A DNA stretch of 56,177 nucleotides from Eubacteriales bacterium (GCA_045614425.1 JAZLCX010000131.1:1-56177), one strand, 5' to 3'; positions 24,452 to 44,904 are shown, counted from the stretch's first letter. Numbers and translations are program-made. The notes: a model not told the origin generated them from the sequence alone.

Positions 24452-24452
24452 A

Positions 24453-24863
24453 ATGAAATACAGCGAAAAGGTAATGGACCACTTCACAAATCCCAGAAAT
24501 GTGGGCGAAATAGAGAATGCCGACGGCGTGGGAACCGTTGGAAACGCAAAATGCGGAGATATAATGAAAATGTACCTCAAAATTGAGGATGACGTGATAA
24601 CCGACTGCAAATTCAAGACATTCGGATGCGGAGCGGCTATAGCAACCTCTTCAATGGCGACCGAGCTTATAAAGGGAAAGAGTGTCGAGGATGCGTTAAA
24701 GCTTACAAATAAGGCGGTTGTAGAGGCTCTCGAGGGACTTCCGCCCGTAAAGGTGCACTGTTCCGTGCTTGCGGAGGAGGCTGTCAAAACTGCCGTTGCA
24801 AATTACTATGAAAAAATCGGTAAGCCGGTGGATTTTGAGATAGAGAAGAGCCACGAGGAATAA
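24453..24863 (+). CDS. nifU: Fe-S cluster assembly scaffold, NifU/IscU type
   Basis: 136 aa with GNAKCGD, FKTFGCGAAIA and VHCSVLAEEA motifs (three conserved Cys). Confidence 0.95.
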   Translation: MKYSEKVMDHFTNPRNVGEIENADGVGTVGNAKCGDIMKMYLKIEDDVITDCKFKTFGCGAAIATSSMATELIKGKSVEDALKLTNKAVVEALEGLPPVKVHCSVLAEEAVKTAVANYYEKIGKPVDFEIEKSHEE

Positions 24864-24921
24864 TTCTCAACTAATTGCGGGGGCGATTTAGCTCCCGTAA
24901 TCTGAATTTTGGGGGATTTAT

Positions 24922-26326: not shown

Positions 26327-26355
26327 TTGACAATTATTTACACGTATGTTATAAT
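26327..26355 (+). promoter_or_regulatory. Full-consensus sigma-A promoter TTGACA-17-TGtTATAAT
   Basis: ttgaca at 26327-26332, a 17-nt spacer ending in TGt, and tataat at 26350-26355. It is 80 nt upstream of the ATG at 26436. Confidence 0.75.
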
Positions 26356-26435: not shown

Positions 26436-29400
26436 ATGAAGAAGTCTTTGTTTCAGAAAGTGATCTGCTTTGTTCTTTCTGCAACAATCCTGCTCGGTGT
26501 CTTCGCGATTACCGCGAGCGCCGATTCCTCGTACGACAGAGGATATTCTTCAAACCGCGACACTGCGTCGTCGCTTGAAGATATGAAGGCTCTGGTAGGC
26601 ATTTCGTCATATCAGCAGTACCTCGCTGAGTACGGAGAGCCTTCCGTCGAGGAAGGAATGGAAACGGTTAAGGTCGATGTTACCAACCCGATTTCAAAGG
26701 AATATGCAGAGATTGTGGCGGATAGTTTGCTTTGCCAGAACGCGATGAAGGAAAATCCGGAGGACTGGTTCAGCTTCGGCAACAACCAGGAGGGCTCTCT
26801 CTACATTTCGGATAAGGGAGAGGTAACCTGGAATTTCCGTATTGATGTAGCAGGCTACTATTACATCAAGCTCGATTATTTCTCCTGCATAACCGCGGAG
26901 AGCAGTATCAGTACGATTGAGCGTAAGCTCTACATCGACGGTATGGTACCTTTTGATGAGGCGAGCTACATATCACTCAGTAAAACGTGGGGATACACCA
27001 ATATAATCACGGCTGATCCCGTTCCCACCGATGAGCCCGACGGAGCTACAACGGTGTACGAGCAGAAGAGTGACGGATACTACAAGATATCTACGGTAAT
27101 TAAAGACGGCATGAAGACCGTTACCACTTATGTTCTTTCGCAGGACATAAACGGAAACTCTATGGCACCGTCTATTACTCCATCTCCCTCGTGGAGCACC
27201 TATTACTGCCAGGACAAATCGGGTTATTATCAGGGGTACTTCCGTTTCTATCTTGCTTCCGGAAATCACCAGATAACTCTTGCCGCTGTGCGTGAGCCGG
27301 TAATCATCAAGGGAATAGAGCTCGTGCCTTATGACCCTGCACTTAATGCGATACCTTCTTACGAAAGCGTTAAGCAGATGTACGCCGATAAGGGATATCA
27401 GTCTGCGGACGGCGAGATTACGAACATTCAGGCGGAATTCCCGGATTTCGTTTCCGACTCTTCGGTTTATCCTTCTAACGATAAAACCTCTTCGGCAACC
27501 TATCCTTCCGTTTCGAAGGCGCAGCTTCATAACGTAATCGGAAAGAACAGCTACGACGCTCTCGGTCAGTGGGCAGCCTACAAGTTCTCGGTTGATAAGA
27601 CCGGACTTTACAAACTCAATATGCGTTATCAGCAAAGCACCTTGCAGGGTATGTATCTCTGCCGTACATTGAAGCTTCAGGGCGGAATGTACAGCGACGC
27701 TGACGGTATGCCTACGGTTCCGTTTATGGAAGCGTATGACACCCAGTTCCCCTATAGCAAGGACTGGCAGTCATCGTTCGCAGGCGACAGCAACGGAAAC
27801 ATTTTTGAGTTCTACTTCGAGGCGGGTGTCGAGTATACGCTCTACATTGAGTGCTCGCTCGGCTCGCTTAACAACCTTGTACAGTCGGTTGAGAACACTC
27901 TTAACGTGCTCAACGATTGCTACCTCAGAATATTGCAGCTTACGGGTTCAGCACCCGACGAATACCGTGATTATGGTTTCCTTGAAATAATGCCCGACGT
28001 TCTTATCAGCTTTGGTGAGCAGGCGATGGAGCTTGAGAGAATAAGACTTGAGCTCAAGAACCTTTGCGGAACGAACGGCTCACATATATCGACACTCGGT
28101 ACGGTTGCGCTTCTTCTTGACGACATGAGCAGAAACGATGGTTATAACATAGCATCGAACCTCTCTACTCTCAAGGCTTATCTCGGTACTCTCGGTACTT
28201 GGGTAAACGACTCTAAGAAGGGCAAGCTCATTCTCGATTCTATCAGCGTATGTCCTTCGGATACGTCGAGAAGCGATCTTCCCAGCGCAAAGGCGGGCTT
28301 CTTTAAGTCCATTTGGTTTGAAATTACATCCTTCTTCTACTCGTTCATAACCGATTACGACAAAATGGGTGTAACAGAAATCAACTCCGACAACGACGTT
28401 TCCATTGACGTTTGGCTTGCGATGGGACGTGACCAGTCGAATATTTGGCGTAGAATGGTGGACGCGCAAGACGGCTTTACCGACAGAACCGGTTACGCTG
28501 TAAACCTTAAGCTCGTTACAGCTTCGACGCTTCTGCCTTCGGTACTTGCAGGAAAGGGACCAGACGTTTACATGGGACTTCCGGCAGCGACGGTAATTAA
28601 CTACGCTATTCGTGATGCGATTCTTGGCGTCAGCGGAAACTACGGCGGCGAGAATTTCGATAACACAGCATTCAATACTACTATTTATACTTATAAGAGC
28701 GAAAACGGTATAGAAAAGACCACTGAGTATAAGGGCAAAGACGGACTCTCGTTCGTTTCTCTTCCTTATAAGCAGTATGCGGAGGAGAATTTCGTTCCCG
28801 CAGCGATTGATACGCTTACTCTTCTTGACGTGTCGTACGGATTGCCGCAGACGATGACCTTCTCTATGATGTTCTACCGTATGGACATTCTCGCCCAGCT
28901 CGGTCAGGAAGTGCCTGAGACCTGGGACGACCTTCTTTCGATGCTTCCCGTACTTCAGTCAAACAACATGCAGTTTGGTATAGATTACATCGGTATGCTT
29001 GACTACATGCTTTATCAGAAGGGCGGCGGAATGTGGAAGTATGACGAGGATCCCGCGCTTGTCGAGTATGCAGGTTCAAAGGTTGACCTTGACAGCGACG
29101 TAGCTCTTGAAGCCTTTGACTTTGTATGCCGACTTTACAGTGACTATTCCTTCCCGGTATCTTACGATGCGGCTAACCGCTTCAGAACCGGTGAAATGCC
29201 CGTACTCGTAGGTGGCTATACGGCGCTTTACAACCAGCTCGTCGTTTATGCTACCGAAATTGAGGGTAAGTGGGAATTCTGCCCGCTTCCCGGCTGTGCA
29301 ACTTACGACGATAAGGGCAACAGAACCTACATCAATTACGACTCCATTGCGAGCGTTGGTGCGAGTGTAATACTCTACGGTTGTGAAGGCGAACAGAGAA

Positions 29401-29765
29401 ATGCTGCTTGGGAATTTATGCAGTGGCACACCTCGGCTGACATTCAGTCCAGCTACGGCAACCAGATGGTTTCGATTCTCGGACCTTCCGCAAAGTATGA
29501 GACAGGTAACATCAATGCAATACAGGACCTTTCCTGGACTGCAAGTGAAAAGGATGCTATCCTCGACCAGATTGAGCACATGTCATCTATAGTTAACTAC
29601 CCTGGTTCTTACTATATCGCAAGATATATCAAGTTTGCATTCCTTGATGCCGTTAACGAAGGCGCAGACCCCGTTGACGCACTCAATGGATACATTGATG
29701 CAATTAACGCCGAGATAACCCGTAAACGCGAGGAATTCGGCCTTAAAACCGGCGACCCAAGTTAA
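26436..29765 (+). CDS. Giant secreted ABC solute-binding protein: signal peptide, two jelly-roll/CBM-like modules, a helical linker, and a C-terminal family-1 SBP domain
   Basis: 1109 aa. The N-terminus MKKSLFQKVICFVLSATILLGVFAITASA/DSS looks like an SPase I site, and I see no lipobox. Two similar modules are present (VTWNFRIDVAGYYYIKLDYFS...FYLASGNHQITLAAV..IKGIELVP and AAYKFSVDKTGLYKLNMRYQQ...FYFEAGVEYTLYIECS). From about residue 650 (nt ~28380) the sequence is SBP-like: IDVWLAMGRDQSNIWRRMV...LLPSVLAGKGPDVYMGL. Confidence 0.75.
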   Translation: MKKSLFQKVICFVLSATILLGVFAITASADSSYDRGYSSNRDTASSLEDMKALVGISSYQQYLAEYGEPSVEEGMETVKVDVTNPISKEYAEIVADSLLCQNAMKENPEDWFSFGNNQEGSLYISDKGEVTWNFRIDVAGYYYIKLDYFSCITAESSISTIERKLYIDGMVPFDEASYISLSKTWGYTNIITADPVPTDEPDGATTVYEQKSDGYYKISTVIKDGMKTVTTYVLSQDINGNSMAPSITPSPSWSTYYCQDKSGYYQGYFRFYLASGNHQITLAAVREPVIIKGIELVPYDPALNAIPSYESVKQMYADKGYQSADGEITNIQAEFPDFVSDSSVYPSNDKTSSATYPSVSKAQLHNVIGKNSYDALGQWAAYKFSVDKTGLYKLNMRYQQSTLQGMYLCRTLKLQGGMYSDADGMPTVPFMEAYDTQFPYSKDWQSSFAGDSNGNIFEFYFEAGVEYTLYIECSLGSLNNLVQSVENTLNVLNDCYLRILQLTGSAPDEYRDYGFLEIMPDVLISFGEQAMELERIRLELKNLCGTNGSHISTLGTVALLLDDMSRNDGYNIASNLSTLKAYLGTLGTWVNDSKKGKLILDSISVCPSDTSRSDLPSAKAGFFKSIWFEITSFFYSFITDYDKMGVTEINSDNDVSIDVWLAMGRDQSNIWRRMVDAQDGFTDRTGYAVNLKLVTASTLLPSVLAGKGPDVYMGLPAATVINYAIRDAILGVSGNYGGENFDNTAFNTTIYTYKSENGIEKTTEYKGKDGLSFVSLPYKQYAEENFVPAAIDTLTLLDVSYGLPQTMTFSMMFYRMDILAQLGQEVPETWDDLLSMLPVLQSNNMQFGIDYIGMLDYMLYQKGGGMWKYDEDPALVEYAGSKVDLDSDVALEAFDFVCRLYSDYSFPVSYDAANRFRTGEMPVLVGGYTALYNQLVVYATEIEGKWEFCPLPGCATYDDKGNRTYINYDSIASVGASVILYGCEGEQRNAAWEFMQWHTSADIQSSYGNQMVSILGPSAKYETGNINAIQDLSWTASEKDAILDQIEHMSSIVNYPGSYYIARYIKFAFLDAVNEGADPVDALNGYIDAINAEITRKREEFGLKTGDPS

Positions 29766-29790: not shown

Positions 29791-30738
29791 ATGTCACAGA
29801 CAAATGCAAAAAAACGTCCGACACAACGCTCTGAAATGTCAAAGCTGCAGTGGACGTGGAAGGAGATGAAGAAGAATAAAACGGCGTACTTCATGGTCGC
29901 ACCGTTCTTTATCCTCTTCATCATCTTCACGGTCCTGCCGGTATTTCTTTCGATAATTTTGAGCCTTACGGACTTCAATATGCTGCAGATGCCTCATTGG
30001 AAGGGACTTTCCAACTATACAAGACTCTTCCTCGAGGACGATATATTTATTCTCGCGTGTCAGAATACTCTGATTTTCGCGGCAGTAACAGGTCCTGTAT
30101 CGTATCTGCTTTCGCTCTTGGTAGCATGGTTTATCAATGAGCTTCCTCCCAAAATCCGCGCGGTAGTAACGCTTGTCTTCTACTCGCCCTCGATTTCGGG
30201 TCAGGTTTACCTTATATGGAAGACACTCTTTTCTTCCGACTCACACGGTTGGGCAAACGCCACGCTAATGGATTTAGGTATAATAAATTCACCTATCCTG
30301 TGGTTTGAAAACGCCGACTACGTAATGCCGCTTTGTATTATAGTTGCACTGTGGACCTCGCTCGGTACGGCGTTCCTGTCCTTCATTGCCGGCTTCCAGA
30401 CCATTGACCGTTCAATGTATGAGGCGGCGGCGGTTGACGGAATTAAGAACCGCTGGCAGGAGCTCTGGTTTATCACGCTCCCGACCATGCGTCCTCAGAT
30501 GATGTTCGGTGCGGTGCTTGCAATCACGGGTTCGTTCGGATTCGGTGCGGTAGTTGACGCACTTTGCGGATTCCCGTCGGTTGACTACGCTGCGCATACG
30601 ATAATGCACCACCTAAGTGACTACGGCGGTGAGCGATATGAAATCGGTTATGCTTCGGCAATAGCCGTGGTGCTCTTCGTAATAATGTTCGTAAGTAACA
30701 TTGCGGTTAAGAAGGCACTTTCGAAGGTAGGTGAGTAG
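29791..30738 (+). CDS. ABC transporter permease, MalF/LplB-like (CUT1 type)
   Basis: 315 aa, polytopic, with the EAA loop YEAAAVDGIKNRWQELWFITLPTMRP. Confidence 0.9.
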   Translation: MSQTNAKKRPTQRSEMSKLQWTWKEMKKNKTAYFMVAPFFILFIIFTVLPVFLSIILSLTDFNMLQMPHWKGLSNYTRLFLEDDIFILACQNTLIFAAVTGPVSYLLSLLVAWFINELPPKIRAVVTLVFYSPSISGQVYLIWKTLFSSDSHGWANATLMDLGIINSPILWFENADYVMPLCIIVALWTSLGTAFLSFIAGFQTIDRSMYEAAAVDGIKNRWQELWFITLPTMRPQMMFGAVLAITGSFGFGAVVDALCGFPSVDYAAHTIMHHLSDYGGERYEIGYASAIAVVLFVIMFVSNIAVKKALSKVGE

Positions 30739-30740
30739 TA

Positions 30741-31622
30741 ATGGCGAAGTTTAAAAAATTAAGAACCAGGGGTCACCGAGTCGTACTTAACCGTTCGGCC
30801 GGAGGCGACACGGGTATAACCATCGTACTTACCATACTCGGAATATTTATGTTCCTTCCCATGTACTACGTTGTCATCCAGGCGTTCAAGCCCCTCGACG
30901 AACTTTTCATGTTCCCCCCTCGCTTCTACGTAATCAATCCTACGTTTGACAACTTTACCGATTTGTTTACCCTTCTCAGTGACTCGTGGGTACCTTTCTC
31001 AAGATACATATTCAACACGGTATTTATCACTCTTTGCGGTACTGTCGGTAACCTTATCTTCTCGTCTATGGCGGCATACGCTCTTGCGAAGCTTCGCTTC
31101 CCCGGAAGAAATGCTATCTTCCAGATCATAGTTATGTCGCTTATGTTCCACTCCACCGTTAACACCGTTACTCACTTTATCATTCTTTCGGCATTCGGTT
31201 GGGTTGATACATACCTTTCTATAATCGTTCCTTCTATGGCGTCCACTATGGGACTTTACCTCATGAAGCAGTTTATGGAATCCTCGGTTCCCGATACGGT
31301 ACTTGAATCCGCCCGTCTTGACGGCGCAAGCGAGTTCAGAACCTTCCTTATAATTGCTATGCCGATGGTTAAGCCTGCGTGGCTCACGCTTATAATCGAG
31401 TGCTTTAAGGGACTCTGGAACGCCGGAGCATCCATTTACATTCACTCGGAGGAGCTTAAGAGCTTTAACTACGCAATCAACCAGATCGTCACGGGTGGTA
31501 TTGCACGTTCCGGTGCCGGCGCGGCAGCAACAGTCGTAATGATGCTCGTTCCTATTCTGGTATTCGTATTTAACCAGAGCAAGATCATCGAGACGATGGG
31601 CTCGTCCGGTATGAAGGATTAA
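30741..31622 (+). CDS. ABC transporter permease, MalG/LplC-like (CUT1 type)
   Basis: 293 aa with the EAA loop LESARLDGASEFRTFLIIAMPMVKP. It starts 2 nt after the previous gene. Confidence 0.9.
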   Translation: MAKFKKLRTRGHRVVLNRSAGGDTGITIVLTILGIFMFLPMYYVVIQAFKPLDELFMFPPRFYVINPTFDNFTDLFTLLSDSWVPFSRYIFNTVFITLCGTVGNLIFSSMAAYALAKLRFPGRNAIFQIIVMSLMFHSTVNTVTHFIILSAFGWVDTYLSIIVPSMASTMGLYLMKQFMESSVPDTVLESARLDGASEFRTFLIIAMPMVKPAWLTLIIECFKGLWNAGASIYIHSEELKSFNYAINQIVTGGIARSGAGAAATVVMMLVPILVFVFNQSKIIETMGSSGMKD

Positions 31623-31632: not shown

Positions 31633-33831
31633 ATGAAAAAGATTACATCTATAATAATATTTGCGCTTGTCGCAGTGATGCTTGTCGGATTAGTTCCGGT
31701 TTCGGCATCTGATCCTTATGACACCTATACCTACTCGATTGACGGAACACCGCTTAAGTCGCCCACGGCGTACAGAGCGGAGAGCGTAGTTGATGCGCTT
31801 GATATGAAGCTTGACAGAGTTTCTTCCGTCACATCGCTTAAGAACCCCAACGATGTAGTTACCGATGATGACTCAAATGTTTATATCGCAGACACCGGTA
31901 ATAACAGAATTATCGTTCTTGATAAGTACTATACGGCAAAGGCTGAAATAAGCAGCTTTGTCGACGAGTTCGGCGTAACACAGACCTTTAATCAGCCGAG
32001 AGGACTTTTTGTAACTACAAATATAGATGCGAATACCGGAGTAAAGACCAGACTTATTTATATCTGCGATACTCAGAACTTCCGTCTCGTAGTTATGAAG
32101 GAGGCTGAAAATGGAGAGTTCGTCTACGAAAGAATCATCGAGAAGCCGGATACTCCGCTTCTTGCGACCGATGCATTTAAGCCTTCTGCAGTTGCAGTTG
32201 ACCTTTACGGCAGAATTTTCGTAGTTTCGGAATCCTGTTTCGAGGGCGTAGTCGTTATGTCGAGCGAGGGTCTGTTCACCGGATTTATCGGTGTTCAGAA
32301 GGTTACTTACTCGCTTATCGATATGATTTGGCGTAAGTTCCAGACAGCAGAGCAGAGAGCGTCTGCTGCGAAGAACCTTGCAAATCCTTATAACAATATC
32401 ACGGTTGATGAGAACGGATTCGTTTACGTTACCACCTCACCTTCCGACATTGAGGGAAAAACGCAGCAGTATTCTTCGATACGCTCTAAGAGTGCAGCGA
32501 CATCCCCTGTTAAAAAGCTTAATTCCGCAGGTAATGAAATCATGAAGCGTAACGGCTTCTTCGATCCCGGCGGAGAGGTAGATATCAAAGGCGGTGAATG
32601 GGTTTCCGTTATCACCGACGTAGCAGTTGGTCAGGAGGGATCATGGTCCATTCTTGATAAGTCCCGTTCGAGAGTTTTCACCTATGACCAGAACGGAAAC
32701 CTGCTTTTCGCATTTGGCGGTGTCGGCGAACAGAACGGTAACATTGAAAACGAAAAAGCGGTTTCGATTGCTTATCACAAAGTAAACGGTGTTTATTCCT
32801 TCCTTCTTCTCGATAACGATACGAGTGGAGCGAGAATTACCGTTTATACTCCGTCTCCGTACTACGATACTATCATAGCAGCACTTAAGAATCACAACGA
32901 GCACAACTACTCCGAGTCAATATCCTATTGGCAGGACGTTCTTACCCAGAACAATAACTTTGACCTTGCGTATATAGGTATAGGTAAGGCGCTGTTTAAT
33001 CAGGGTAAGTACGAGGAAGCACAGGCGATGCTCGAAAGTGCTTATGAAACCGACTATCACGATAAGGCGTTTGTCGAAATAAGAAAGGAAATCATCCAGA
33101 AATGGCTTCCTCTTATTCTGGTAGCGGCAATAGTTGTTCTCTGGCTCTTCTTTAAGTTCCTCGGATACGCTAAGAAGACCAACAAGGCGGTATCTCTTAA
33201 GGTTGGCCGTAAGACCTACTGGGAGGAGCTTATTTACGCATTCCACCTTGTATTCCACCCGTTTGACGGCTTCTGGGATTTGAAGCACGAGAAACGCGGT
33301 TCCGTAAGAGCTTCTCTTACGATAATGCTGATTACAGTAGCAGCATTCTTCTATCAGGCAATAGGTCAGGGATATTCATTCAACCCGAGAGGTGACTACT
33401 CAACGGTTATATTCCAGGTTCTTGCCGTAGCAGTTCCCGTAATACTCTGGTGCGTAGGCAACTGGTGTCTTACAACACTCTTCGACGGAGAAGGAAGCTT
33501 TAAGGATATCTTCATCGCAACGGGATATTCTCTTGCACCTCTTCCTCTCTTCGTGGTTATTTCTACTTTGCTTACAAACGTGATGACCGCTCAAGAGGGT
33601 ACAATGACCGGCTTTATCGTAACTATCGGTTACGTATGGGTTGGATTCCTTCTCTTCTTCGGTATGTCGGTTGTTCACGATTACACAATGGGCAAAAACT
33701 TCATAACCGTTATTGGAACAATAGTAGCAATGGCAGTAATTATGTTCGTTATAATTCTGTTCTCGTCGCTCGTTGTTAAGATGGTATCATTCATTATTGC
33801 GGTAAGCTCCGAGCTTGCCGGGCGAATTTAG
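31633..33831 (+). CDS. Membrane protein fusing an extracytoplasmic NHL-repeat beta-propeller, a TPR-like segment, and a C-terminal Yip1-like multi-TM domain
   Basis: 732 aa. It has an N-terminal signal/anchor (IIIFALVAVMLVGLVPVSA) and NHL-type repeats (DDSNVYIADTGNNRIIVLDK, LIYICDTQNFRLVVMK, GRIFVVSES, GSWSILDKSRSRVFTYDQNGNLLFAFGG). A TPR-like segment follows (IGIGKALFNQGKYEEAQAMLESAYE). About six hydrophobic helices run from nt ~33085 onward. Confidence 0.7.
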   Translation: MKKITSIIIFALVAVMLVGLVPVSASDPYDTYTYSIDGTPLKSPTAYRAESVVDALDMKLDRVSSVTSLKNPNDVVTDDDSNVYIADTGNNRIIVLDKYYTAKAEISSFVDEFGVTQTFNQPRGLFVTTNIDANTGVKTRLIYICDTQNFRLVVMKEAENGEFVYERIIEKPDTPLLATDAFKPSAVAVDLYGRIFVVSESCFEGVVVMSSEGLFTGFIGVQKVTYSLIDMIWRKFQTAEQRASAAKNLANPYNNITVDENGFVYVTTSPSDIEGKTQQYSSIRSKSAATSPVKKLNSAGNEIMKRNGFFDPGGEVDIKGGEWVSVITDVAVGQEGSWSILDKSRSRVFTYDQNGNLLFAFGGVGEQNGNIENEKAVSIAYHKVNGVYSFLLLDNDTSGARITVYTPSPYYDTIIAALKNHNEHNYSESISYWQDVLTQNNNFDLAYIGIGKALFNQGKYEEAQAMLESAYETDYHDKAFVEIRKEIIQKWLPLILVAAIVVLWLFFKFLGYAKKTNKAVSLKVGRKTYWEELIYAFHLVFHPFDGFWDLKHEKRGSVRASLTIMLITVAAFFYQAIGQGYSFNPRGDYSTVIFQVLAVAVPVILWCVGNWCLTTLFDGEGSFKDIFIATGYSLAPLPLFVVISTLLTNVMTAQEGTMTGFIVTIGYVWVGFLLFFGMSVVHDYTMGKNFITVIGTIVAMAVIMFVIILFSSLVVKMVSFIIAVSSELAGRI

Positions 33832-33850: not shown

Positions 33851-36800
33851 ATGAATATAAAGAGAATATTATCAACTGCTTTGGTTGTTGTCATGCTGTT
33901 TACGACGCTTATTGCTGCGGTTCCGTTTGCTGCGTCTGCGGCATACTCACCGTCAAGCGCGACGGCAAACGCTAACATTCCTGAAGGATATGAAGAAGCA
34001 AATCTTAACCAGGCAGATCTTGAAGCTTATCTTGCGGAATACGTTGAGTATGATTTTGCGAGTGCCGGCGAGATGCTTAATTATGAGCTCGAGCGCGGAT
34101 ACCTCTACTATACCAACTCTTCGGGTATGCAGTACACGATGTTTGTCAATAAGTATACGGGCTTTATTTATTACGTAAATAACGTTACCGGTCAGATACT
34201 TACTTCTAACCCGATAAATCCTAAACAGGCTCCCGGTGTAGATGACAAACAGACTCTTATGAGCCAGATAGTTATAAATTTTGCCGAGGCTGAAAACTCT
34301 GCTAAGGCTAAAACTTATACCAGCTTCAGATGGGCTGCTATGCGTTCGCAGATTTCGGTAAGTCCCATATCCGGCGGATTCAGAGTTAACTATACTCTTG
34401 GTGATACCGCTGCGAGATTCCTTCTTCCCGGATGGGTTAAGGCTGACGACTTCGAGGAATCTATACTCAAACCCATGTTTGAGCAGTTCGCTCTCAAAAT
34501 GGAGGAGTATTGCTCCGGAAAATATCCGAACGTTAACTTCAGCTTCTTTGATAACCCGAGATACGCTGCGTACGAATACGAATGTATTTCCTATACTGCA
34601 GCGAGAAAATACTTCTCGGAGATGCAGACTATATATCAGGATGTACTTAAGAGAACTTCTCCTGAATATAAGCAGCTCAACGCTTTCAGAACCGATATAA
34701 ACAAGATAATGCAGGCGTATTCTGCTAAGATTCCTGCAAAGTATATAGACAAGAGCAGTTACAAGGATACTCTTGAAACTATGTACAAGGATTATCCCGT
34801 AACCAAGGATGGCGAGGCTATCTACGTTTATTCAGGCTCTAAGCTTCCCGAGGCAAAGCGTCCGCTTGCAAACATAATCAAGGAATATTGCCCTGATTAC
34901 ACCTTCTCTCTTATGTATAAGCAGGAGAAGGAGTGCGGATACGAGGATGATTCGGCACAGCAGCCCGTATTCAGATGTGCTCTTGAATACACATTCAACA
35001 GCGACAATACGCTCTCGGTACGTCTTCCCGCGAGCTCAATCACTTTCGATGAAACCGTATATATCCTTAACGATATAATTCCTCTTCAGTATTTCGGCGG
35101 TGCCGACATGACAAATGACGGATACGTATTCTATCCCGACGGAAGCGGAACTGTTATCAACTTCTCGGATTTCTACGGCGATGCGAAGACTGTAGGTATA
35201 GTTCTTGAAGCGCCTATGTACGGTCTTGATTACTGTTATTCTAAGATTAACAGTATAGCCGGTATATCGCACAGAGAGCAGGTAACAATGCCGGTTTACG
35301 GCGTTGTTAACGAGGTTAAGGCAAACCCTGCAACAACTCTTGTAAACCCCGAAATAAAAACCGTGACAAACGGATATTTCGCAATAATTGAAGAGGGCTC
35401 GGCTCTTGCAAACCTCATGGTTATGTCCGGCGGTAGCTCCCACAGATTTATAGGAGCATACGCATATTACACGCCTTACCCCTCAGATACGTATGACCTT
35501 TCCGAAACTCTTTCGGTTGGTTCGCTCGGTATATACAAAATCGTTTCCGATTCAAAATATACGGGTTCTTACGTAACCAGATACGTAATGCTTGCCGACG
35601 ATGAGCTTGGTGTGAAGTATTACGGTGAGAATGGATACTATTCTTCGGATTACGTCGGCATGGCAACTTGCTACCGTGATTATCTGAAGGAAAACGGTAC
35701 GCTCAAGGCAATTGAGAACTTTAATGAGGATCTTCCTCTTTATATTGAGGTTCTCGGTGCAATGGATATAACTGCTAAATTCCTTTCTTTCCCGATTACA
35801 AAGAATGTCGCTCTTACTACCTTTAATGACGTTGCTACAATTTACGACGAGCTTTCAAAGTGCGAGGAATTAGTAGTACAGAAGGTTGAAGAGTATAAGC
35901 AACTCGCTGAAGCGGAAGAGGATGCGGTTCAGAAATATCAGTATGAAAAGCAGGCTGAAAGATACGCCGAGCTTATTGGAAGCATACAGAATATTAAAAA
36001 CATAAACTTCAAGCTTACAGGCTTTGCTAACGGCGGATTGAAGTCCACGTATCCCGTTAAGCTTAAATGGGTTAAGGCGTGCGGCGGAAAATCCGGTTTT
36101 AAGAATCTCTTAGCGAAAGCTGATGCTGTAAACGCAAGCGGCGAAGGCGCGTTTAACATCTATCCCGACTTTGATTTTATGTACATAAACAAGACGGGAA
36201 CATTTGACGGAATATCCGTAAAGGATACAGCCTCAATGCTCGTTGACAACCGTTATGCGTCCATGCAGACCTACAATTCCGTAATTCAGGAGTTTGAAAC
36301 TGTTAGCTCTCTTGTTGTAAATCCCGGCGTTTTAGAGTCGCTTTACAATAAATTTAACAGCAAGTATTCCTCATACGGAAACAAGAATATCTCTGTATCC
36401 TCGATGGGTGTTACACTTAACTCAAACTTCGACAAGAGCGATGCTATAAACCGTGAAGATGCTCTCGGAATGGTTGAAAGCGTTCTTGATACGATGGTTA
36501 ACACTAACGGATACAACGTGATGACCGATACAGGAAACGTATATGCTCTCAAATATGCGTCTCATATTCTTAACGCTCCCGTTGATTCGAGCCATCACAG
36601 ATACACGTCATATACCGTACCCTTTATGGGAATGGTTCTTCACAGCTACGTAAATTACACCGGTGAGCCTATCAACTATTCAGGTTCTCCCGCGTACGAC
36701 AGACTTCGTGCAATAGAGAGCGGTGCTGCACTTTATTACATCGTCTGCTTCAGAAACACCTCGTATATGAAGAACGATGCGGATCTCAACAAGTACTACG

Positions 36801-37768
36801 GTGTTGACTATCACAACTGGTTTGACCTTATCGCAGAGAACTATAAGATTCTTAACGATTATATTGGCGACCTTCAGAAATACGAGATCGTTGACCATGA
36901 CATTCTCAAGGCTGAGCGCGAGGTTGCTGAAGATGAGCTTGCAACTAAGTTCATCGCAATCGAAGAGGAACTTCTTGTTCTTCTCGAAAAACAGATTATT
37001 AATACTGTAGACGAAGCTCTTGCAGGTCTTAAGGGCAACAGTCAGAACTATGACAAGAGAATAAAGATTGTAATATCGAGAGATAGCATAATCGATGCAT
37101 TTGCCGGTATTCTTAATATCTCTAAGGATAGATTTGATGTTCGTCCTTCTGCAAATGCACTTTCATTCAGTGAGAGAATCGATGCTCTTGCCGATGAATT
37201 TGAGGCTGAATACAAAGGCGCTTCGGATGCAGCAAATACCGTTACGGTAAACTTTGAATTTTCTCTTGCAAAGATGCTGACAATGTCGCTTGACGATCAG
37301 CTCTCAGACTTGGCTGGCAAGTACAGCGCTTATGACCCCGATATTGTAAGACTTAACGTTAACAGAGCGGCAATCGTTTCGAGATTTGCAAAAATACTCG
37401 ATAAGGACGTTTCTGAAATCGAAACTTTGATCGGTGCGGAAATCGACGCAGTTATTGCTAAGTACACAAGTGTTTATGACGGTTACCATGAAGACGGTGA
37501 ATACGACCCCGCACTCTCTCTTGTGATTGAGTACAGCGCGTTCGTATACATTGCAGACTCTTACGTTACTTATTCCTTGGCTCTTGACGGCAAGGATTAT
37601 ATCGCAACCGACTTTACGGTTGATAACGGAAACGTAACCATGGTTACTTATAAGTGCGGTGATAGCGTAGTAAGATTTATTCTCAACTACAACAACTACA
37701 AAGTAACCGTAAGACTCGGCGAAACAGAATCCTATACGCTTGACGCGTACGGATTTGTAAGAATCTAA
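33851..37768 (+). CDS. 1305-aa secreted/anchored protein of unknown function (possibly DUF5696-like)
   Basis: The N-terminal signal/anchor is ILSTALVVVMLFTTLIAAVPFAASAA. The rest has mixed predicted beta/alpha content (YVFYPDGSGTVINF, MPVYGVV, LYIEVLGAMD, FKLTGFANGG, IYPDFDFMY) and a coiled-coil insert (EEYKQLAEAEEDAVQKYQYEKQAERYAEL). I recognise no catalytic motif by eye. The DUF5696 label comes from memory of similar gene neighbourhoods and is unverified. Confidence 0.55.
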   Translation: MNIKRILSTALVVVMLFTTLIAAVPFAASAAYSPSSATANANIPEGYEEANLNQADLEAYLAEYVEYDFASAGEMLNYELERGYLYYTNSSGMQYTMFVNKYTGFIYYVNNVTGQILTSNPINPKQAPGVDDKQTLMSQIVINFAEAENSAKAKTYTSFRWAAMRSQISVSPISGGFRVNYTLGDTAARFLLPGWVKADDFEESILKPMFEQFALKMEEYCSGKYPNVNFSFFDNPRYAAYEYECISYTAARKYFSEMQTIYQDVLKRTSPEYKQLNAFRTDINKIMQAYSAKIPAKYIDKSSYKDTLETMYKDYPVTKDGEAIYVYSGSKLPEAKRPLANIIKEYCPDYTFSLMYKQEKECGYEDDSAQQPVFRCALEYTFNSDNTLSVRLPASSITFDETVYILNDIIPLQYFGGADMTNDGYVFYPDGSGTVINFSDFYGDAKTVGIVLEAPMYGLDYCYSKINSIAGISHREQVTMPVYGVVNEVKANPATTLVNPEIKTVTNGYFAIIEEGSALANLMVMSGGSSHRFIGAYAYYTPYPSDTYDLSETLSVGSLGIYKIVSDSKYTGSYVTRYVMLADDELGVKYYGENGYYSSDYVGMATCYRDYLKENGTLKAIENFNEDLPLYIEVLGAMDITAKFLSFPITKNVALTTFNDVATIYDELSKCEELVVQKVEEYKQLAEAEEDAVQKYQYEKQAERYAELIGSIQNIKNINFKLTGFANGGLKSTYPVKLKWVKACGGKSGFKNLLAKADAVNASGEGAFNIYPDFDFMYINKTGTFDGISVKDTASMLVDNRYASMQTYNSVIQEFETVSSLVVNPGVLESLYNKFNSKYSSYGNKNISVSSMGVTLNSNFDKSDAINREDALGMVESVLDTMVNTNGYNVMTDTGNVYALKYASHILNAPVDSSHHRYTSYTVPFMGMVLHSYVNYTGEPINYSGSPAYDRLRAIESGAALYYIVCFRNTSYMKNDADLNKYYGVDYHNWFDLIAENYKILNDYIGDLQKYEIVDHDILKAEREVAEDELATKFIAIEEELLVLLEKQIINTVDEALAGLKGNSQNYDKRIKIVISRDSIIDAFAGILNISKDRFDVRPSANALSFSERIDALADEFEAEYKGASDAANTVTVNFEFSLAKMLTMSLDDQLSDLAGKYSAYDPDIVRLNVNRAAIVSRFAKILDKDVSEIETLIGAEIDAVIAKYTSVYDGYHEDGEYDPALSLVIEYSAFVYIADSYVTYSLALDGKDYIATDFTVDNGNVTMVTYKCGDSVVRFILNYNNYKVTVRLGETESYTLDAYGFVRI

Positions 37769-37782: not shown

Positions 37783-38736
37783 ATGATGGAAAAATCGCTT
37801 AAAATTCCAAAAAGACGCAAAGCGTCGCTTTCTGCGCGCAAAGCTCGAAAAGGATATTTCTTTGTCGCTCCGTTTATCATTGGTATAGTTCTCATTTATA
37901 TACCTATCCTCCTTGACTCGATTTGGTTCAGCTTTTACGATACCGCCTTTTATACCGATGAGGTAGCAGGCGAGCTCGTTAAGTATTACAAGTCAGCCGG
38001 ACTTCACTACTACAGAACCGCTATCGGTGATACTAATTTCATAACGGCGCTTCTTGCAGGTTTGCAGCAGCTTATATTTGAAATTCCCGCAGTTGTTATT
38101 TTCTCACTCTTCATTGCGGTTGTTTTGAACCAAAAGATGCTTGGTAGAGCAGTGTTCCGTGCGATATTCTTCGTTCCGGTTATTATTTCTACCGGATTTA
38201 TGGAGCAGCTTCTTGCAAACAACAGCGCAGCGGACTATATGGAAGGCGGTGTAAACACCGGTGAACAGCAGGACGCTCAATCTTCGAACGATATTATTTC
38301 GGTTCTCGACGTAGAAAAGCTCTTCGGTTCGATGAAGGTTGGTACGGAGCTTGTCGGTTACGTTGTTGCTATCGTTAACAACGTGTACGATTACATAAAC
38401 TACTCCGGTGTACAGATGCTTATATTCCTTGCAGGTCTTCAGTCGATATCTCCTTCAATTTATGAAGCGAGCCAGATAGAAGGCGCAACGGGATGGGAAA
38501 CATTCTGGAAAATAACCTTCCCGATGATTTCTCCGATGATACTCGTAAACGCAGTATATTCGGCAATTAATGCGTTCACACGCAGTACGAACCCGACTAT
38601 GGTCCATATAACCAATACTGTTGACGACTCTCTCAGAGCTGCAACGTCTTGGATTTATTTCGGCATAGTTATGCTGATAGTAGCAGTTGTTGCGTTGATT
38701 ATGTCAACCTTCATCTTCTATCAGCGAAGGGATTAA
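37783..38736 (+). CDS. ABC transporter permease, MalF-like (second pair)
   Basis: 317 aa with the EAA loop YEASQIEGATGWETFWKITFPMISP and a hydrophilic periplasmic insert (NSAADYMEGGVNTGEQQDAQSSND). Confidence 0.88.
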   Translation: MMEKSLKIPKRRKASLSARKARKGYFFVAPFIIGIVLIYIPILLDSIWFSFYDTAFYTDEVAGELVKYYKSAGLHYYRTAIGDTNFITALLAGLQQLIFEIPAVVIFSLFIAVVLNQKMLGRAVFRAIFFVPVIISTGFMEQLLANNSAADYMEGGVNTGEQQDAQSSNDIISVLDVEKLFGSMKVGTELVGYVVAIVNNVYDYINYSGVQMLIFLAGLQSISPSIYEASQIEGATGWETFWKITFPMISPMILVNAVYSAINAFTRSTNPTMVHITNTVDDSLRAATSWIYFGIVMLIVAVVALIMSTFIFYQRRD

Positions 38737-38748: not shown

Positions 38749-39810
38749 ATGGATTCTAAAACAGTTGTAAGAAAAGAGACAAAGAATAGAATTCGCGTTG
38801 ACTACGAGGGTAAGTTGTCCTTTAAAGAAAGGATTGCGAAAAAGCTCAAAGCGTCTAACACATGGATAAAGGCTGTTGTAAACGTATGCCGATTTATCCT
38901 TATGCTTGGTGTTTCCTACGTTATTCTTTATCCCTTCATTGCTAACATTGCCGGTTCGTTTATGACTATAGACGATATCGTATCTCCTACCGTTGCCCTT
39001 ATCCCTACGAAGCCTACCTTGGAATCGTATAAGATAATCGCGGTAGAGAACCACTACCTTGAAGCCTTGACAAACACGCTTTTCCTCTCGCTTGCATGTG
39101 CTATTATTCAGACGTTTATAGCATGTCTTGTAGGCTACGGACTTGCAAAGTTCAAGTTCAAGGGTAACGGCGCGGTAATGGTAGTTGTTGTTATTACAAT
39201 GATTATCCCGCACGTAGCGCTCAGTTCCGCTATGAAGTCTCAGTTTATAAACTTTGACCTTTTCCACGTATTTGCCTGGAACTATGACGGACCGATAAAG
39301 ATGATTTTCGGTGATACACTTCACCTTAACAGCACGTTCTGGCCGCTCATACTTCTCTCAGCTACAGGTCTTGCCTTTAAGAACGGACTCTATATTTACC
39401 TTATGCGTCAGTTCTTCAAGGGCGTTCCCGATGAGCTTGAAGAGTCTGCGTACGTTGACGGTGCAAACACCTTCCGTACCTTCTTCCAGATTATAATTCC
39501 GCTGTCTGTTCCGATGATGATTACAATATTCCTGTTCTCGTTCTCGTGGCAGTGGTCTGACGTATTCTATACGAGAATATGCTTCCCGGCAGCCGATGCA
39601 ACAACGAATGCAACCTACCTTATGCCCGACGTTGTAAAGGTTCCCGTAGCAGTGGAAAAGATTTATTCAACTCACCCGGGTTGGGGACTTTACAGCCCTA
39701 TGCTCAAGAATACAGCCGCAATGATGGCAATTGCGCCTCTGATTGTTCTTTACCTCTTCTGCCAGAAGTTCTTGGTACAGGGTATTGAGCGTTCCGGTCT
39801 TGTCGGCTAA
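38749..39810 (+). CDS. ABC transporter permease, MalG-like (second pair)
   Basis: 353 aa with the EAA loop EESAYVDGANTFRTFFQIIIPLSVP. Confidence 0.88.
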   Translation: MDSKTVVRKETKNRIRVDYEGKLSFKERIAKKLKASNTWIKAVVNVCRFILMLGVSYVILYPFIANIAGSFMTIDDIVSPTVALIPTKPTLESYKIIAVENHYLEALTNTLFLSLACAIIQTFIACLVGYGLAKFKFKGNGAVMVVVVITMIIPHVALSSAMKSQFINFDLFHVFAWNYDGPIKMIFGDTLHLNSTFWPLILLSATGLAFKNGLYIYLMRQFFKGVPDELEESAYVDGANTFRTFFQIIIPLSVPMMITIFLFSFSWQWSDVFYTRICFPAADATTNATYLMPDVVKVPVAVEKIYSTHPGWGLYSPMLKNTAAMMAIAPLIVLYLFCQKFLVQGIERSGLVG

Positions 39811-39851: not shown

Positions 39852-39888
39852 AAAGAGGTATTGTGTTGTTTAACACAATACCTCTTTT
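39852..39888 (+). terminator. Rho-independent terminator closing the large operon
   Basis: A perfect 16-bp stem, aaagaggtattgtgtt / aacacaatacctcttt, with a 4-nt loop (gttt). The 3' arm ends in a T-run. Confidence 0.8.
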
Positions 39889-41039: not shown

Positions 41040-42173
41040 TCAGCGCTTCGCTAAATATTTTCTCATATCCACAGCGCAGGCGAGAAGAATTATAAGTCCC
41101 TTTATTATATAAAGCATATTCTGGTCGACCGAAAGGAAATTGAGTCCTACAAAAATTATCTGCAAAAGCAAAACGCCTATCACGATGCCGCCGATTTTTC
41201 CCGTGCCGCCGACGAATGAAACTCCTCCTATAACGCAGGCGGCAATTGCGTCGCTCTCATAGTTTAGTCCGGTGTAGGAGGCTATTGAGCCTATTCGCGC
41301 ACCCTCTATAAATCCGGTTATACCGTACATAATTCCGGCAAGCATAAATACAAGAAGTATGGTTCTGAATACGTTTACACCCGAAACGAGAGCCGCATCC
41401 TCGTTTGAACCAACAGCAAACATATTTTTGCCAAACACGGTTTTGTTCCATATAAACCACATAATGACCGTGATTATGACGGCGTAAAGCACGTATTTCG
41501 GCACCGCTATTCCGTTAATCGAAAACAAAGGACCGCTTATGAAGCTCAGATATGATGCGTCAAGTCCCGAAAGCGTTTGACCGCCGTTATCGCCAATCTG
41601 TAAATAGAGAAGAACAAGACCGAAGAGTATCAGCTGGGTGGAAAGGGTCACTATAAACGGATGAAGCTTAAATTTGGCTACGAAAAATCCGTTTACAAGG
41701 CCTATAAGCGCGCCCGCTGCCATAACTGCAAGGAGAACCAGCGGAATCGGAACAGTTCCGATTCCCGGAAACATCTTGTTGGCGTAAGAGGCGGATTGCA
41801 AAAGAGATGCGGCAATGCAGGCTGTAAGACCTACTGCTCGTCCTGCCGAAATATCCGTGCCCGAAAGAACTATCGCGCCGCCAATACCAAGGGCGATAGG
41901 CAGTCTTGCGGCTGTTAAAGAAATAATATTTATTATTGAAGCGGTTGAAACGAATCTCGGCTCCATAATCGCAATCACAATAATCGCCGTTATGATTATT
42001 ATATACATTGCGTTTTTTAGGATAAAATCCGACACCGTGTTGAGTTTTTCTCTCGGTGACAGCTGCTTGAATTCGGAAATCCGCCGTCCTACACCTTGGG
42101 GCAGGGATTTGATTTTCATCGTAGTTCTTGTAAATATGGAATCGTTTCTGTTATTAGAGTTGTTTTCGGGCAT
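41040..42173 (-). CDS. mglC: Sugar ABC transporter permease, MglC-like (CUT2 type)
   Basis: The track ORF extends to 42269 and overlaps mglA. I prefer the ATG at 42173 (MPENNSNNRND...). The protein is polytopic and has GGTGKIGG and GTDISAGR-type motifs. Confidence 0.85.
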   Translation of the reverse strand: MPENNSNNRNDSIFTRTTMKIKSLPQGVGRRISEFKQLSPREKLNTVSDFILKNAMYIIIITAIIVIAIMEPRFVSTASIINIISLTAARLPIALGIGGAIVLSGTDISAGRAVGLTACIAASLLQSASYANKMFPGIGTVPIPLVLLAVMAAGALIGLVNGFFVAKFKLHPFIVTLSTQLILFGLVLLYLQIGDNGGQTLSGLDASYLSFISGPLFSINGIAVPKYVLYAVIITVIMWFIWNKTVFGKNMFAVGSNEDAALVSGVNVFRTILLVFMLAGIMYGITGFIEGARIGSIASYTGLNYESDAIAACVIGGVSFVGGTGKIGGIVIGVLLLQIIFVGLNFLSVDQNMLYIIKGLIILLACAVDMRKYLAKR

Positions 42174-42195
42174 AATCCCTTTGTGTTCCTTTCTT

Positions 42196-43713
42196 TTAGG
42201 CAAATCTTGTGGCAAGGTCCATAATTTTTTCTTGCGACAGCTCCTTGCCGCTGACCTCGCCCGAAACACGTCCGCCCGACATAACTATGATTCGGTCGCA
42301 GACTCCTATAAGCTCCGGCATTTCGGAGGAAACCAAAATTATCCCTTTACCTTTTTCTGCAAGCTCGATTATAAGCCTGTAAATCTCGTATTTTGCGCCA
42401 ACGTCAATTCCTCGCGTGGGCTCGTCGAGAAGCAGAACCTTCGGCTCGGTAAGAAGCCATCTTCCAAGTATAACCTTCTGCTGATTTCCACCCGAAAGAG
42501 ATGCGATTCTCGTGCTTTTTGACGGTGTTTTTATCTTCATTGCCTCAATGCACCACTCGGTAGCAAGGTTCATCTTTTCGGTTGATAGAATGGGCCCCGT
42601 GCGGTATTTTTTCAGACTTGACACGGTTGCGTTCTCGGTTATCGAGAGGATTCCGAAAATTCCGCTCTCGCGCCTCTCCTCAGTGAGAAGGGCAAAGCCC
42701 TCTTTTATCGCCTCGCGGGGATTATTGTTTTCTATCCTCTTGCCCTCGAGAAAAATCTCTCCGCCCTCGCGCTCTCTTCTGCCAAAAAGAGTTTCAATAA
42801 GCTCTGTACGTCCCGAGCCGTCAAGCCCCGCCACACCGAGTATCTCACCGCGCCTCAATTCAAGGTCGGCAGATCTCAGTCGGGAATATTTGCCGGAGAT
42901 TCCTTCCACTTTAAGCATAACATCCCCGGGGGTGTTGTGTTTTTTCGGATAACGCTCTTCAAGCTCACGACCGACCATAAGCTTTATTATTTCATCGGTA
43001 GTGATGTCGGATGCCGCCTTGGTAGCAACGTGCTTGCCGTCGCGCATAACCGTTACCTCGTCGGATATGCGAAGTATTTCTTCCATCTTGTGAGAGATGT
43101 ATATAATTGCGCAGCCACGCGCCTTTAAGGTCTCGATTATTTTAAAAAGTCTTTCTGCCTCAGCCTCGTTCAATGATGAGGTGGGCTCGTCAAATACTAT
43201 GACCTTTGCGTTATACGAGACAGCTTTTGCAATCTCTACCATCTGTCTTTTTGAGACCGATAGGGTATTCATCTTTGCCCTCGGGCTTGTGTCTATTCCG
43301 AGACCGTCGAATATTTCCTTTGTCATGGAGTACATTTTTTTCTCGCTGGTAAGAGGAATAAATTTCGCGACACGGGGGAATCTGCCAAGCCACATATTAT
43401 CCATTACGGTGAGCTTCAGTGCTTGGTTAAGCTCTTGATGCACCATAGCAACTCCGTTTGCAAGAGCATCGCGCGCACCCGAAAATTCAACCTCTTTACC
43501 TTCAAGAAATATCCTGCCGCTATCGGCGCGGTATACACCGAAAAGGCACTTCATAAGCGTTGATTTCCCCGCGCCGTTTTCTCCCATCAAGGCGTGTACT
43601 TTGCCGCCGTATACCGTGAGAGAAACCCCGTCAAGAGCTTTCACCCCCGGAAAGCTCTTGCTTATATTTTCCATTTTTATAAGGGGAATGTTATTATTTG
43701 TTGTCATTTTCAC
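42196..43713 (-). CDS. mglA: Sugar ABC transporter ATP-binding protein with duplicated ABC domains (MglA-like)
   Basis: 505 aa with Walker A GENGAGKST, signatures LSVSKRQ and LSGGNQQK, and Walker B motifs VIVFDEPTS and LLLDEPTRG. Confidence 0.92.
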   Translation of the reverse strand: MKMTTNNNIPLIKMENISKSFPGVKALDGVSLTVYGGKVHALMGENGAGKSTLMKCLFGVYRADSGRIFLEGKEVEFSGARDALANGVAMVHQELNQALKLTVMDNMWLGRFPRVAKFIPLTSEKKMYSMTKEIFDGLGIDTSPRAKMNTLSVSKRQMVEIAKAVSYNAKVIVFDEPTSSLNEAEAERLFKIIETLKARGCAIIYISHKMEEILRISDEVTVMRDGKHVATKAASDITTDEIIKLMVGRELEERYPKKHNTPGDVMLKVEGISGKYSRLRSADLELRRGEILGVAGLDGSGRTELIETLFGRREREGGEIFLEGKRIENNNPREAIKEGFALLTEERRESGIFGILSITENATVSSLKKYRTGPILSTEKMNLATEWCIEAMKIKTPSKSTRIASLSGGNQQKVILGRWLLTEPKVLLLDEPTRGIDVGAKYEIYRLIIELAEKGKGIILVSSEMPELIGVCDRIIVMSGGRVSGEVSGKELSQEKIMDLATRFA

Positions 43714-44761: not shown

Positions 44762-44839
44762 AAAATCACCGCCTTTTATACGTTTAGCGCTATTTTTTGC
44801 AAAAATCAGCAATATATTCATGAAAAAGCAAAATGCCAC

Positions 44840-44868
44840 TTGAAAAAAAGACTCGGGGGTGATAAAAT
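44840..44868 (+). promoter_or_regulatory. Putative promoter TTGAAA-17-TGaTAAAAT
   Basis: Hexamers at 44840-44845 and 44863-44868 with an extended TG, 37 nt upstream of the ATG at 44905. Confidence 0.5.
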
Positions 44869-44904
44869 ATATAATAAATAAAAACAAAGCGAAAGGAGAT
44901 AAAT

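Follow-up and report, generated by a model that had tools for sequence, protein, structure and literature searches.

Within a 56,177-nucleotide stretch of DNA from an Eubacteriales bacterium (GCA_045614425.1, JAZLCX010000131.1:1-56177; the window), seven co-directional and tightly spaced genes form a cassette whose fifth member encodes a 1305-aa secreted protein of the Pfam family DUF5696 (PF18952). This gene occupies 33851..37768 on the + strand as a single uninterrupted open reading frame (ORF) of 1305 codons, with an ATG start and a GGAGG ribosome-binding site in front; translation and Pfam comparison identify its product as a DUF5696 protein, which belongs to the GH129/GH101 superfamily of glycoside hydrolases (GH). 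An earlier note, made from the DNA alone, had proposed this ORF, and it is real: all the peptides quoted there lie at, or within 1-2 nt of, the places where they had been put (AAVPFAASAA, residues 22-31; YVFYPDGSG, 425-433; MPVYGVV, 480-486; LYIEVLGAMD, 630-639; FKLTGFANGG, 720-729; IYPDFDFMY, 770-778; ISVSSMG, 847-853). Its description of the protein as secreted also holds. By sequence and hydropathy, the N-terminus carries a Sec signal peptide (residues 1-31; 33851..33943, +), in which a positively charged MNIKR n-region is followed by ~21 hydrophobic residues and ASA/A, with no lipobox. The signal peptide is kept in DUF5696 homologues, and beyond it the 1305-aa sequence contains no lipobox Cys, no further transmembrane (TM) segment and no LPXTG/sortase motif.

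We modeled residues 31-1100 with AlphaFold from 58 sequences (predicted local distance difference test, pLDDT, 84.2; predicted TM-score, pTM, 0.73) and residues 1001-1305 separately. The resulting layout, an N-terminal beta-sandwich, a (beta/alpha)8 barrel and a C-terminal beta domain, is the three-domain architecture of GH129. The beta-sandwich region (~residues 40-590; 33968..35620, +) was delimited from DSSP assignments on the model, conservation and alignment to the N-domain of NagBb, the GH129 alpha-N-acetylgalactosaminidase of Bifidobacterium bifidum; it is interrupted by a helical insertion (~residues 200-360) and carries the family-invariant motifs FYPD430GSG, YGxD460 and MPVYG. The barrel (~residues 625-1010; 35723..36880, +), defined by AlphaFold, Foldseek and HHalign to NagBb, is built on the strands LYIE633VL, FKLTGFAN727GG, IYPDFD775, NIS848V, VMTD893TGN896, HILN, YVN and ALYYIV. 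The earlier note had found six motifs compatible with a large beta/alpha barrel-type core; AlphaFold bears this out for the last four, which are strands 1-4, and places YVFYPDGSG and MPVYGVV in the preceding beta-sandwich. Within the barrel, the strand-4 segment K845-NISVSSMGVTLNSNF-D861 (36383..36433, +) was identified from alignment registers as the site of the GH129 nucleophile (NagBb D435).

The charged insert noticed at nt 35860-35990 (residues 670-714) proves to be a confident two-helix hairpin of residues 671-706 (35861..35968, +), which lies between barrel helix 1 and strand 2 (DSSP helices 641-658 and 662-676 in the numbering of the trimmed model, pLDDT ~90) and breaks the Pfam match into two stretches. 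The C-terminal duplication is likewise genuine: self-BLAST and AlphaFold delimit copy 1 at residues 1045-1123 (36980..37219, +) and copy 2 at residues 1139-1211 (37265..37483, +), sharing 29% identity over 80 columns (E 7e-6), and each copy folds as a long helix, a strand and helices in the model of residues 1001-1305 (pLDDT 92.6). Foldseek found no significant structural relative of these helical repeats, and their RecA-like matches were discarded as noise. The last ~82 residues (~1224-1305; 37520..37765, +), assigned from DSSP and local Foldseek matches, form a C-terminal beta-sandwich that resembles a GH13/GH42 C-domain over 57-70 columns with a probability of 0.8-1.0 but E of 0.06-0.8; Pfam Glyco_hydro_42C also matches the C-terminal region weakly.

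The cassette begins with a giant solute-binding protein (SBP) of 1109 aa (26436..29765, +; Pfam SBP_bac_8), which has its SBP domain at residues 741-1007 and a signal peptide without a lipobox, an unusual omission in a Gram-positive SBP. Its N-terminal ~700 residues have no family match, with a weak CBM35-like hint at 344-399 (E 0.08). Next come two permeases of UgpA/MalF type (29791-30738, +) and UgpE/MalG type (30741-31622, +), both assigned by Pfam BPD_transp_1 and NCBIfam, and a 732-aa membrane protein (31633..33831, +) in which Pfam and TM prediction recognize a signal peptide, an NHL/SBBP beta-propeller, TPR and a C-terminal multi-pass Yip1 domain. The beta-propeller could be a lyase-like or glycan-binding domain; literature searches for Yip1 together with an ABC (ATP-binding cassette) transporter returned nothing relevant. 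Directly downstream of the DUF5696 gene lie permease 3 (MalF type, 317 aa; 37783-38736, +) and permease 4 (MalG type, 353 aa; 38749-39810, +), again assigned by Pfam and NCBIfam, so that the gene order behind the "binding-protein slot" of the second permease pair, as the earlier note called it, is correct. EAA coupling motifs are present in all four permeases. The Pfam transporter match of permease 3 covers only residues 209-314, next to a long polar, acidic stretch at ~145-200, and permease 4 is extended at its N-terminus by 40 residues of basic character and has additional loops; these unusual segments could be docking sites for extracellular partners. A sigma-70-type promoter, TTGACA-17-TATAAT with TG (26327..26355, +; 12/12 in a consensus scan), precedes the operon, and a 16-bp perfect hairpin with T/A runs found by sequence scan (39852..39887) is its likely terminator.

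None of the three large exported proteins of the operon has a lipobox, the operon encodes no second binding protein, and it contains no hydrolase besides, possibly, the DUF5696 protein itself. A motif scan and Pfam searches of the larger ORFs found no CUT1 (MsmX/UgpC-type) ATPase in the operon or the 56-kb window. We also considered a domain shared by the giant SBP and Yip1 families with DUF5696/GH129, and rejected it when HHalign found only signal peptides.

The order and strand of the seven genes are identical in all 81 loci from species-representative genomes where the contig is long enough, and the same order is found in three more distant members, in Butyrivibrio fibrisolvens and in Paenibacillus cellulosilyticus. 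The Yip1/beta-propeller gene is directly upstream of DUF5696 at all loci examined, and giant SBP orthologues of 977-1182 aa occur in every cassette examined where the contig reaches far enough. Butyrivibrio splits the Yip1/beta-propeller gene into an "NHL repeat" gene and a "YIP1 family" gene; its SBP gene is overlapped at the start by a GH43 gene, and it encodes a histidine kinase and a response regulator upstream of the cassette and two more SBPs downstream of it. In Paenibacillus, a ugpC-type ATPase gene stands directly before the cassette (L086 3474-4583). The cassette is conserved across Firmicutes, from uncultured Clostridia to Butyrivibrio and Paenibacillus. In our interpretation, the DUF5696 protein evolved together with the other genes and became a constant part of this composite ABC uptake module.

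Membership in DUF5696, to which the earlier note had pointed, is clear: the protein scores 386.7 bits (E 2.6e-115) against a gathering cut-off of 25.6 bits, and Pfam assigns it to no other family. The 424 close homologues are all from uncultured Clostridia, and a profile search retrieved 4483 clusters at 50% identity with E <= 1e-3 (1775 with E <= 1e-30), with members 950-2545 aa long. Carriers comprise 384 species-level genomes of gut and digester Clostridia as well as Butyrivibrio and Paenibacillus, and habitats extend to soil (Paenibacillus) and to metagenome-assembled genomes (MAGs) from anaerobic digesters. A tblastn search of plasmids brought two distant cultured members at 23-26% identity, from B. 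fibrisolvens D1 (plasmid pNP243) and P. cellulosilyticus KACC 14175. These orthologues are WP_073386913.1 in Butyrivibrio, where the locus is WAA20_RS20520-20545, and WP_110042929.1 in Paenibacillus. Homologues are strongly conserved from 98% down to 23% identity; the gene is therefore functional, as had been supposed. Simple searches agree with the earlier note that no signature can be recognized: NCBIfam has no family for the protein, its full sequence finds only a weak, non-significant PPR-like match among PDB sequences, a profile of the window clade finds nothing relevant there, and the Pfam GH129, GH101, GH31 and SBP models do not match it. The roughly 8.3 million open full-text papers and preprints searched do not mention the DUF5696 family.

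Comparison of structures and profiles gives a different answer. The top Foldseek match in the PDB is ZgGH129/DagB, a GH129-like 3,6-anhydro-D-galactosidase (E 7.7e-18), followed by NagBb (E 7e-17), with a TM-score of ~0.58 for the GH129 matches when normalised to the target. Entries 5A59 (GH101; E 2e-7) and 5OHY (GH31; E 5e-7) come behind these, and GH13 and GH66 entries match more weakly than GH31. The fold is a beta-sandwich joined to a triosephosphate isomerase (TIM) barrel, with neither a Venus-flytrap SBP fold nor an SBP Pfam domain in the protein.

The same kinship can be reached from sequence. In a phmmer search, the Paenibacillus DUF5696 protein matches NagBb directly (E 8e-4 for 5WZQ, 0.012 for 5WZN) over the strand with hLxGWxQxGY and the next helix, GGxxGMKS. 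Using the NagBb fragment printed in the PDB, we fetched the whole nagBb gene from gut metagenome contigs; the numbering of the fetched sequence reproduces the published D330, W398, D435 and E478. In one such contig, VOFH01003156.1, the nagBb-like frame stops at codon 420, where other contigs keep 634 codons open; the cause is either a misassembly or a frameshift/nonsense variant. When the Paenibacillus and Butyrivibrio pair was aligned with HHalign to 54 GH129 sequences of Bifidobacterium, the two probabilities were 93.8% and 90.6% (E 1.7e-7 and 1.3e-6), with almost all of the length covered, and the window-clade profile aligned to GH129 over 503 columns (probability 62%, E 7e-5). In the reverse direction, the Pfam DUF5696 model gives NagBb 52.2 bits (E 5e-14), above the gathering cut-off, compared with 32.6 bits on Glyco_hydro_101 and 25.0 bits on Glyco_hydro_129, just below the cut-off of the latter. 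DUF5696 is therefore a true homologue and a sister family of GH129/GH101. NagBb also matches DUF6259 at 24.7 bits. On these profile scores, DUF5696, Glyco_hydro_129, Glyco_hydro_101 and DUF6259 appear to make up one superfamily. Altogether, structure and profile comparison firmly place the window protein as a very divergent GH129/GH101 relative.

We then asked which residues the family keeps, first in 149 diverse representatives and afterwards in a larger set of 387 sequences. Even among homologues with as little as 23% identity, about 60 residues do not vary, and many of these are polar and sit where the barrel strands end on the C-terminal side. The earlier note had proposed looking for conserved acidic residue pairs in an alignment, and conserved acids are there: D430 (FYPDGSG) and D460 (YGxD) of the sandwich occur in ~385 of the 387 sequences, and E633, D786 and E956 are essentially invariant in the barrel, together with N727, G729, Y808, Y898, P924, F925, N942, W990 and H1016. 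N896 and H931 are found in all 387. HHalign pairs the stacking W398 of NagBb with Y808, D380 with D786, D263 with E633 and H520 with H931; NagBb D322, D330 and D521 are not conserved. The roles of NagBb residues are taken in part from PMC5698469 and PMC8106489.

Strand 4 departs from this pattern. Here, NagBb reads HGIVLD430CAYLD435VF and the window protein KNIS848VS850SMGVT855LNSNFD861, and three registers can be drawn: NagBb D435 falls on S848 with the window-clade HHalign, on T855 with the remote-pair HHalign (anchored by NF...GI), and on S850 by the logic of the D-G-h-x-h-D motif common to GH13, GH31 and GH129, applied through the hidden Markov model (HMM) alignment. Residues 845-860 contain no Asp or Glu, and the GH129 strand-4 nucleophile is absent under all three. 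In the clade, the S848 column holds Ser in 376 and Ala in 9 of 385 members, and the S850 column Ser, Ala or Gly in 378 sequences. Position 855 is Asp in 57% of sequences and changes between T, N, S and D among relatives that are 60-98% identical, and 146 of the 387 sequences have no acid anywhere in 847-856. As far as alignments can tell, the lack of a conserved carboxylate at the end of strand 4 is robust. Both distant cultured homologues, of Butyrivibrio and Paenibacillus, have Asp at the S848 column (GVDFT, GIDFE), and from these sequences the ancestral nucleophile probably sat at this column and was replaced across the Ser-type clade. The NagBb acid/base E478, which follows strand 5, falls on G895/N896 in the window-clade register or on D893, acidic in 71% of the clade, in the Butyrivibrio register. 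D775, D799, D861 and D912 were dropped as nucleophile candidates, as they are not conserved in remote homologues.

These observations bear directly on whether the protein is a canonical enzyme, that is, a GH129-type alpha-N-acetylgalactosaminidase or GH101-type endo-alpha-GalNAc-ase acting on mucin O-glycans with an Asp/Glu retaining mechanism. NagBb and GH101 are among the top structural matches and the hosts include gut Clostridia, as such an enzyme would lead one to expect. However, the nucleophile is absent, the three further NagBb aspartates are not kept, neither Pfam model matches the window protein, and the family also lives in soil and in anaerobic digesters, which makes a canonical enzyme extremely improbable.

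A more serious contender is an active extracellular glycoside hydrolase founding a new GH family beside GH129/GH101, with its carboxylates moved off strand 4. Candidates are D430/D460, E633 (strand 1), D786 and D893, and the mechanism may have switched from retaining to inverting; such an enzyme would trim a polymer to oligosaccharides for import by the two ABC translocons. The strong GH129-type fold and homology speak for it, as do the near-complete conservation of D430, D460, E633, D786 and E956 alongside N896 and H931, the acidic character of D893 on E478 in one register, and the lack of any other hydrolase in the operon. The GH43 overlap and two-component genes of Butyrivibrio supply a carbohydrate-utilisation context. 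There is a precedent for strand-4 Asp loss with a mechanistic switch in GH97, which comprises retaining members with a strand-4 Asp and inverting members in which this Asp is replaced and other Glu residues act as base. Catalytic plasticity is also documented closer by, between ZgGH129 and NagBb: residues D202, C198, K208 and N218 of the ZgGH129 N-domain form part of its active site (PMC5698469), a precedent for D430 and D460.

Yet no acid occupies any of the strand-4 candidate positions, and strict placement among transporter genes over very large evolutionary distances would be unusual for a free-standing enzyme. The near-invariant Ser in place of the ancestral nucleophile Asp resembles engineered, hydrolysis-dead glycosynthase mutants. 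Nor do the members scanned carry an accessory carbohydrate-binding module (CBM) or cell-wall-anchoring domain, even at 2000-2500 aa: when five members were scanned with Pfam, among them three of the longest (2038-2545 aa), no CBM, SLH, dockerin or other domain appeared. We consider an active hydrolase of this kind plausible, somewhat short of an even chance and a close rival of the reading that we prefer.

On a glycoside hydrolase with conserved catalytic residues, then, the match is strong and the nucleophile is not conserved. Because of this combination, both options of the earlier note, an enzyme and an unconventional binding or scaffold partner of an ABC importer, still stand, and the evidence leans slightly towards the binding or scaffold partner. 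Our preferred reading, held tentatively and at a little under an even chance, is that the DUF5696 protein is a glycosidase-derived, glycan-capturing extracellular subunit of a two-translocon ABC importer. The lost nucleophile, the invariant Ser, the stacking aromatic with its polar pocket, the binding-protein slot, the absence of an anchor and the variable helical add-ons favour it.

In mechanistic terms, the protein is exported through the Sec pathway and its core descends from retaining alpha-glycosidases of GH129/GH101 type. A putative, highly conserved polar/aromatic pocket on the C-terminal face of the barrel would be lined by E633, N727, D786, Y808, N896, Y898, H931 and N942, together with D430 and D460 from sandwich loops, and a glycan bound there would not be cleaved through canonical double displacement. 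Lacking an anchor, the protein would depend on contacts with other proteins to stay at the membrane. Docking might be mediated by the helical hairpin and the helical repeats, which are lineage-specific; possible partners are the Yip1/beta-propeller protein encoded just before it and the large loops in permeases 3 and 4. The substrate would then be presented or gated to the second permease pair, which lacks a binding protein of its own. The analysis establishes the fold, the homology, the lost nucleophile, the synteny and the secretion signal; that the protein binds a glycan without cleaving it, forms a complex and passes its substrate to permeases 3 and 4 is what we infer.

A number of points weigh against this subunit reading. 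To our knowledge, type I ABC importers use Venus-flytrap binding proteins and no TIM-barrel receptor serves such an importer; the giant SBP could serve both permease pairs; and extracellular proteins with GH folds in Gram-positive sugar operons are usually active enzymes. The residue-level HHalign posteriors around strand 4 are low (0.1-0.6), D893 may match the NagBb acid/base in one register, and the five essentially invariant acids are as expected of an enzyme. Catalytic residues also move within the superfamily, as in ZgGH129, which preserves the NagBb nucleophile alone and depends on D202 of its N-domain (PMC5698469). The binding-subunit and active-glycosidase readings are not fully exclusive, and under either one the protein most likely associates physically with the transporter.

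The add-ons that might mediate such contacts differ between lineages. The barrel hairpin is present in 38 of the 149 diverse relatives and absent in Butyrivibrio and Paenibacillus; helical repeat 1 occurs in 121 of the 149, repeat 2, which is a recent duplication, in 12, and the C-terminal beta domain in 143. The minimal core, set by Butyrivibrio (839 aa) and Paenibacillus (757 aa), consists of the sandwich and barrel, with a short C-terminal beta segment in Butyrivibrio. At the other extreme, long members have up to 1500 extra residues without recognisable domains. This variability, with the strict synteny and the absence of an anchor, would suit a scaffold ectoprotein that organises the giant SBP, the Yip1/beta-propeller protein and the four permeases and uses the degenerate glycosidase fold as a mere framework that does not itself bind sugar. 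But the ~60 invariant residues, so many of them polar and at strand ends of the barrel, are typical of a ligand pocket, and we regard a pure scaffold as improbable.

We also entertain a bolder version of the glycan-capturing subunit, in which the disabled GH129-like ectodomain is a dedicated non-Venus-flytrap receptor or gate for the second translocon; Asp-type members would be ancestral "cleave-and-feed" forms and the Ser-type clade would "bind-and-feed". This version is unlikely as it stands, yet the chance that the system conceals a receptor mechanism of a categorically new kind is moderate. The Pfam entry already catalogues DUF5696, but its placement beside GH129/GH101, the clade-wide replacement of the nucleophile and the seven-gene, two-translocon cassette appear to be undescribed in the literature searched. 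An anonymous DUF thereby becomes two testable hypotheses, a new GH family with a non-canonical mechanism or an ABC importer receptor subunit derived from a glycosidase, the first of its kind. Either outcome would bear on glycan acquisition by abundant uncultured gut Firmicutes, and experiments are within reach in the cultured carriers B. fibrisolvens D1 and P. cellulosilyticus KACC 14175.

Housekeeping genes fill 20130-25953 upstream of the cassette, including TrkH and TrkA (- strand), a class-V aminotransferase (IscS/NifS-like; 23264-24451) and MnmA (24922-25953). In many related genomes the cassette likewise comes after aminotransferase, NifU and mnmA genes (iscS-iscU-mnmA), with mnmA found in 40 of the 81 loci. 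No regulator lies between the upstream housekeeping genes and the cassette, nor between the cassette and the downstream EamA gene. Further on, 41040-44938 (- strand) encodes a separate CUT2-type sugar ABC system, made of a Peripla_BP_4 protein, a fused double ABC ATPase and a BPD_transp_2 permease; such a trio is also found downstream of the cassette in a related locus. A run of ORFs follows at 47917-54786 (+), of which the two that were scanned match V/A-type ATPase families (A/B subunit, 49159-50931; subunit I, 52873-54786).

Among characterized proteins, NagBb (PDB 5WZN, with GalNAc, and 5WZP) shares the succession of beta-sandwich, (beta/alpha)8 barrel and C-terminal beta domain, the motifs RYxLL...Y(R)xYL, hLxGW/F-x-x-x-G-Y, GGxxGhKxL, TFD and VPh...H, and the stacking aromatic (W398/Y808) and H520/H931. 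However, identity is only ~10-20%, the window protein has Ser, Ser or Thr at D435 depending on register, and D322, D330 (the "fixer") and D521 are not conserved. The window protein is also twice as long and has the helical insertion in the sandwich, the barrel hairpin and two helical repeats before the C-domain, whereas NagBb has no N-terminal signal peptide in the recovered sequence and is encoded outside this type of cassette. DagB/ZgGH129 of Zobellia galactanivorans (PDB 5OPQ and the Michaelis complex 8RZK), the best Foldseek match, has the same three-domain layout (PMC5698469), although searches against PDB sequences detected no sequence similarity to it. Unlike the window protein, ZgGH129 keeps the strand-4 nucleophile, D486, and is a periplasmic, dimeric exo-enzyme from a carrageenan locus of Bacteroidota. 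GH101 (SpGH101, EngBF) and GH31 share the barrel topology and the preceding beta-sandwich, but are more distant matches without a Pfam match, and their nucleophile Asp is not matched.

As a transporter, the cassette resembles CUT1 importers of the MalEFGK2 type, which occur with an extracellular glycosidase in glycan-utilisation loci of Gram-positive bacteria, in its MalF/MalG-type permeases with EAA motifs, its SBP-family protein and an ATPase encoded elsewhere or upstream (Paenibacillus ugpC). Unlike these importers, it has two permease pairs but one binding protein, which reaches 1000-1180 aa and lacks a lipobox, and both a Yip1/beta-propeller membrane protein and a DUF5696 protein are obligatory members; its surroundings in the window lineage are housekeeping genes, with no regulator. 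We know of no ABC importer that uses a glycosidase-fold subunit. Glycosidase folds that have lost catalysis are known from the 4F2hc/rBAT heavy chains of SLC7 transporters (GH13-like) and from chitinase-like lectins (GH18-like), and 4F2hc and rBAT are obligatory extracellular subunits of a membrane permease. By analogy, the DUF5696 protein has a TIM-barrel glycosidase fold that is strongly conserved with key catalytic residues gone. The analogues, however, are eukaryotic proteins with no sequence relationship to it, and they carry a TM helix of their own as an anchor. If the receptor reading is true, bacteria would have in the DUF5696 protein a counterpart to the 4F2hc/rBAT heavy chains and with it a new way to feed an ABC importer.

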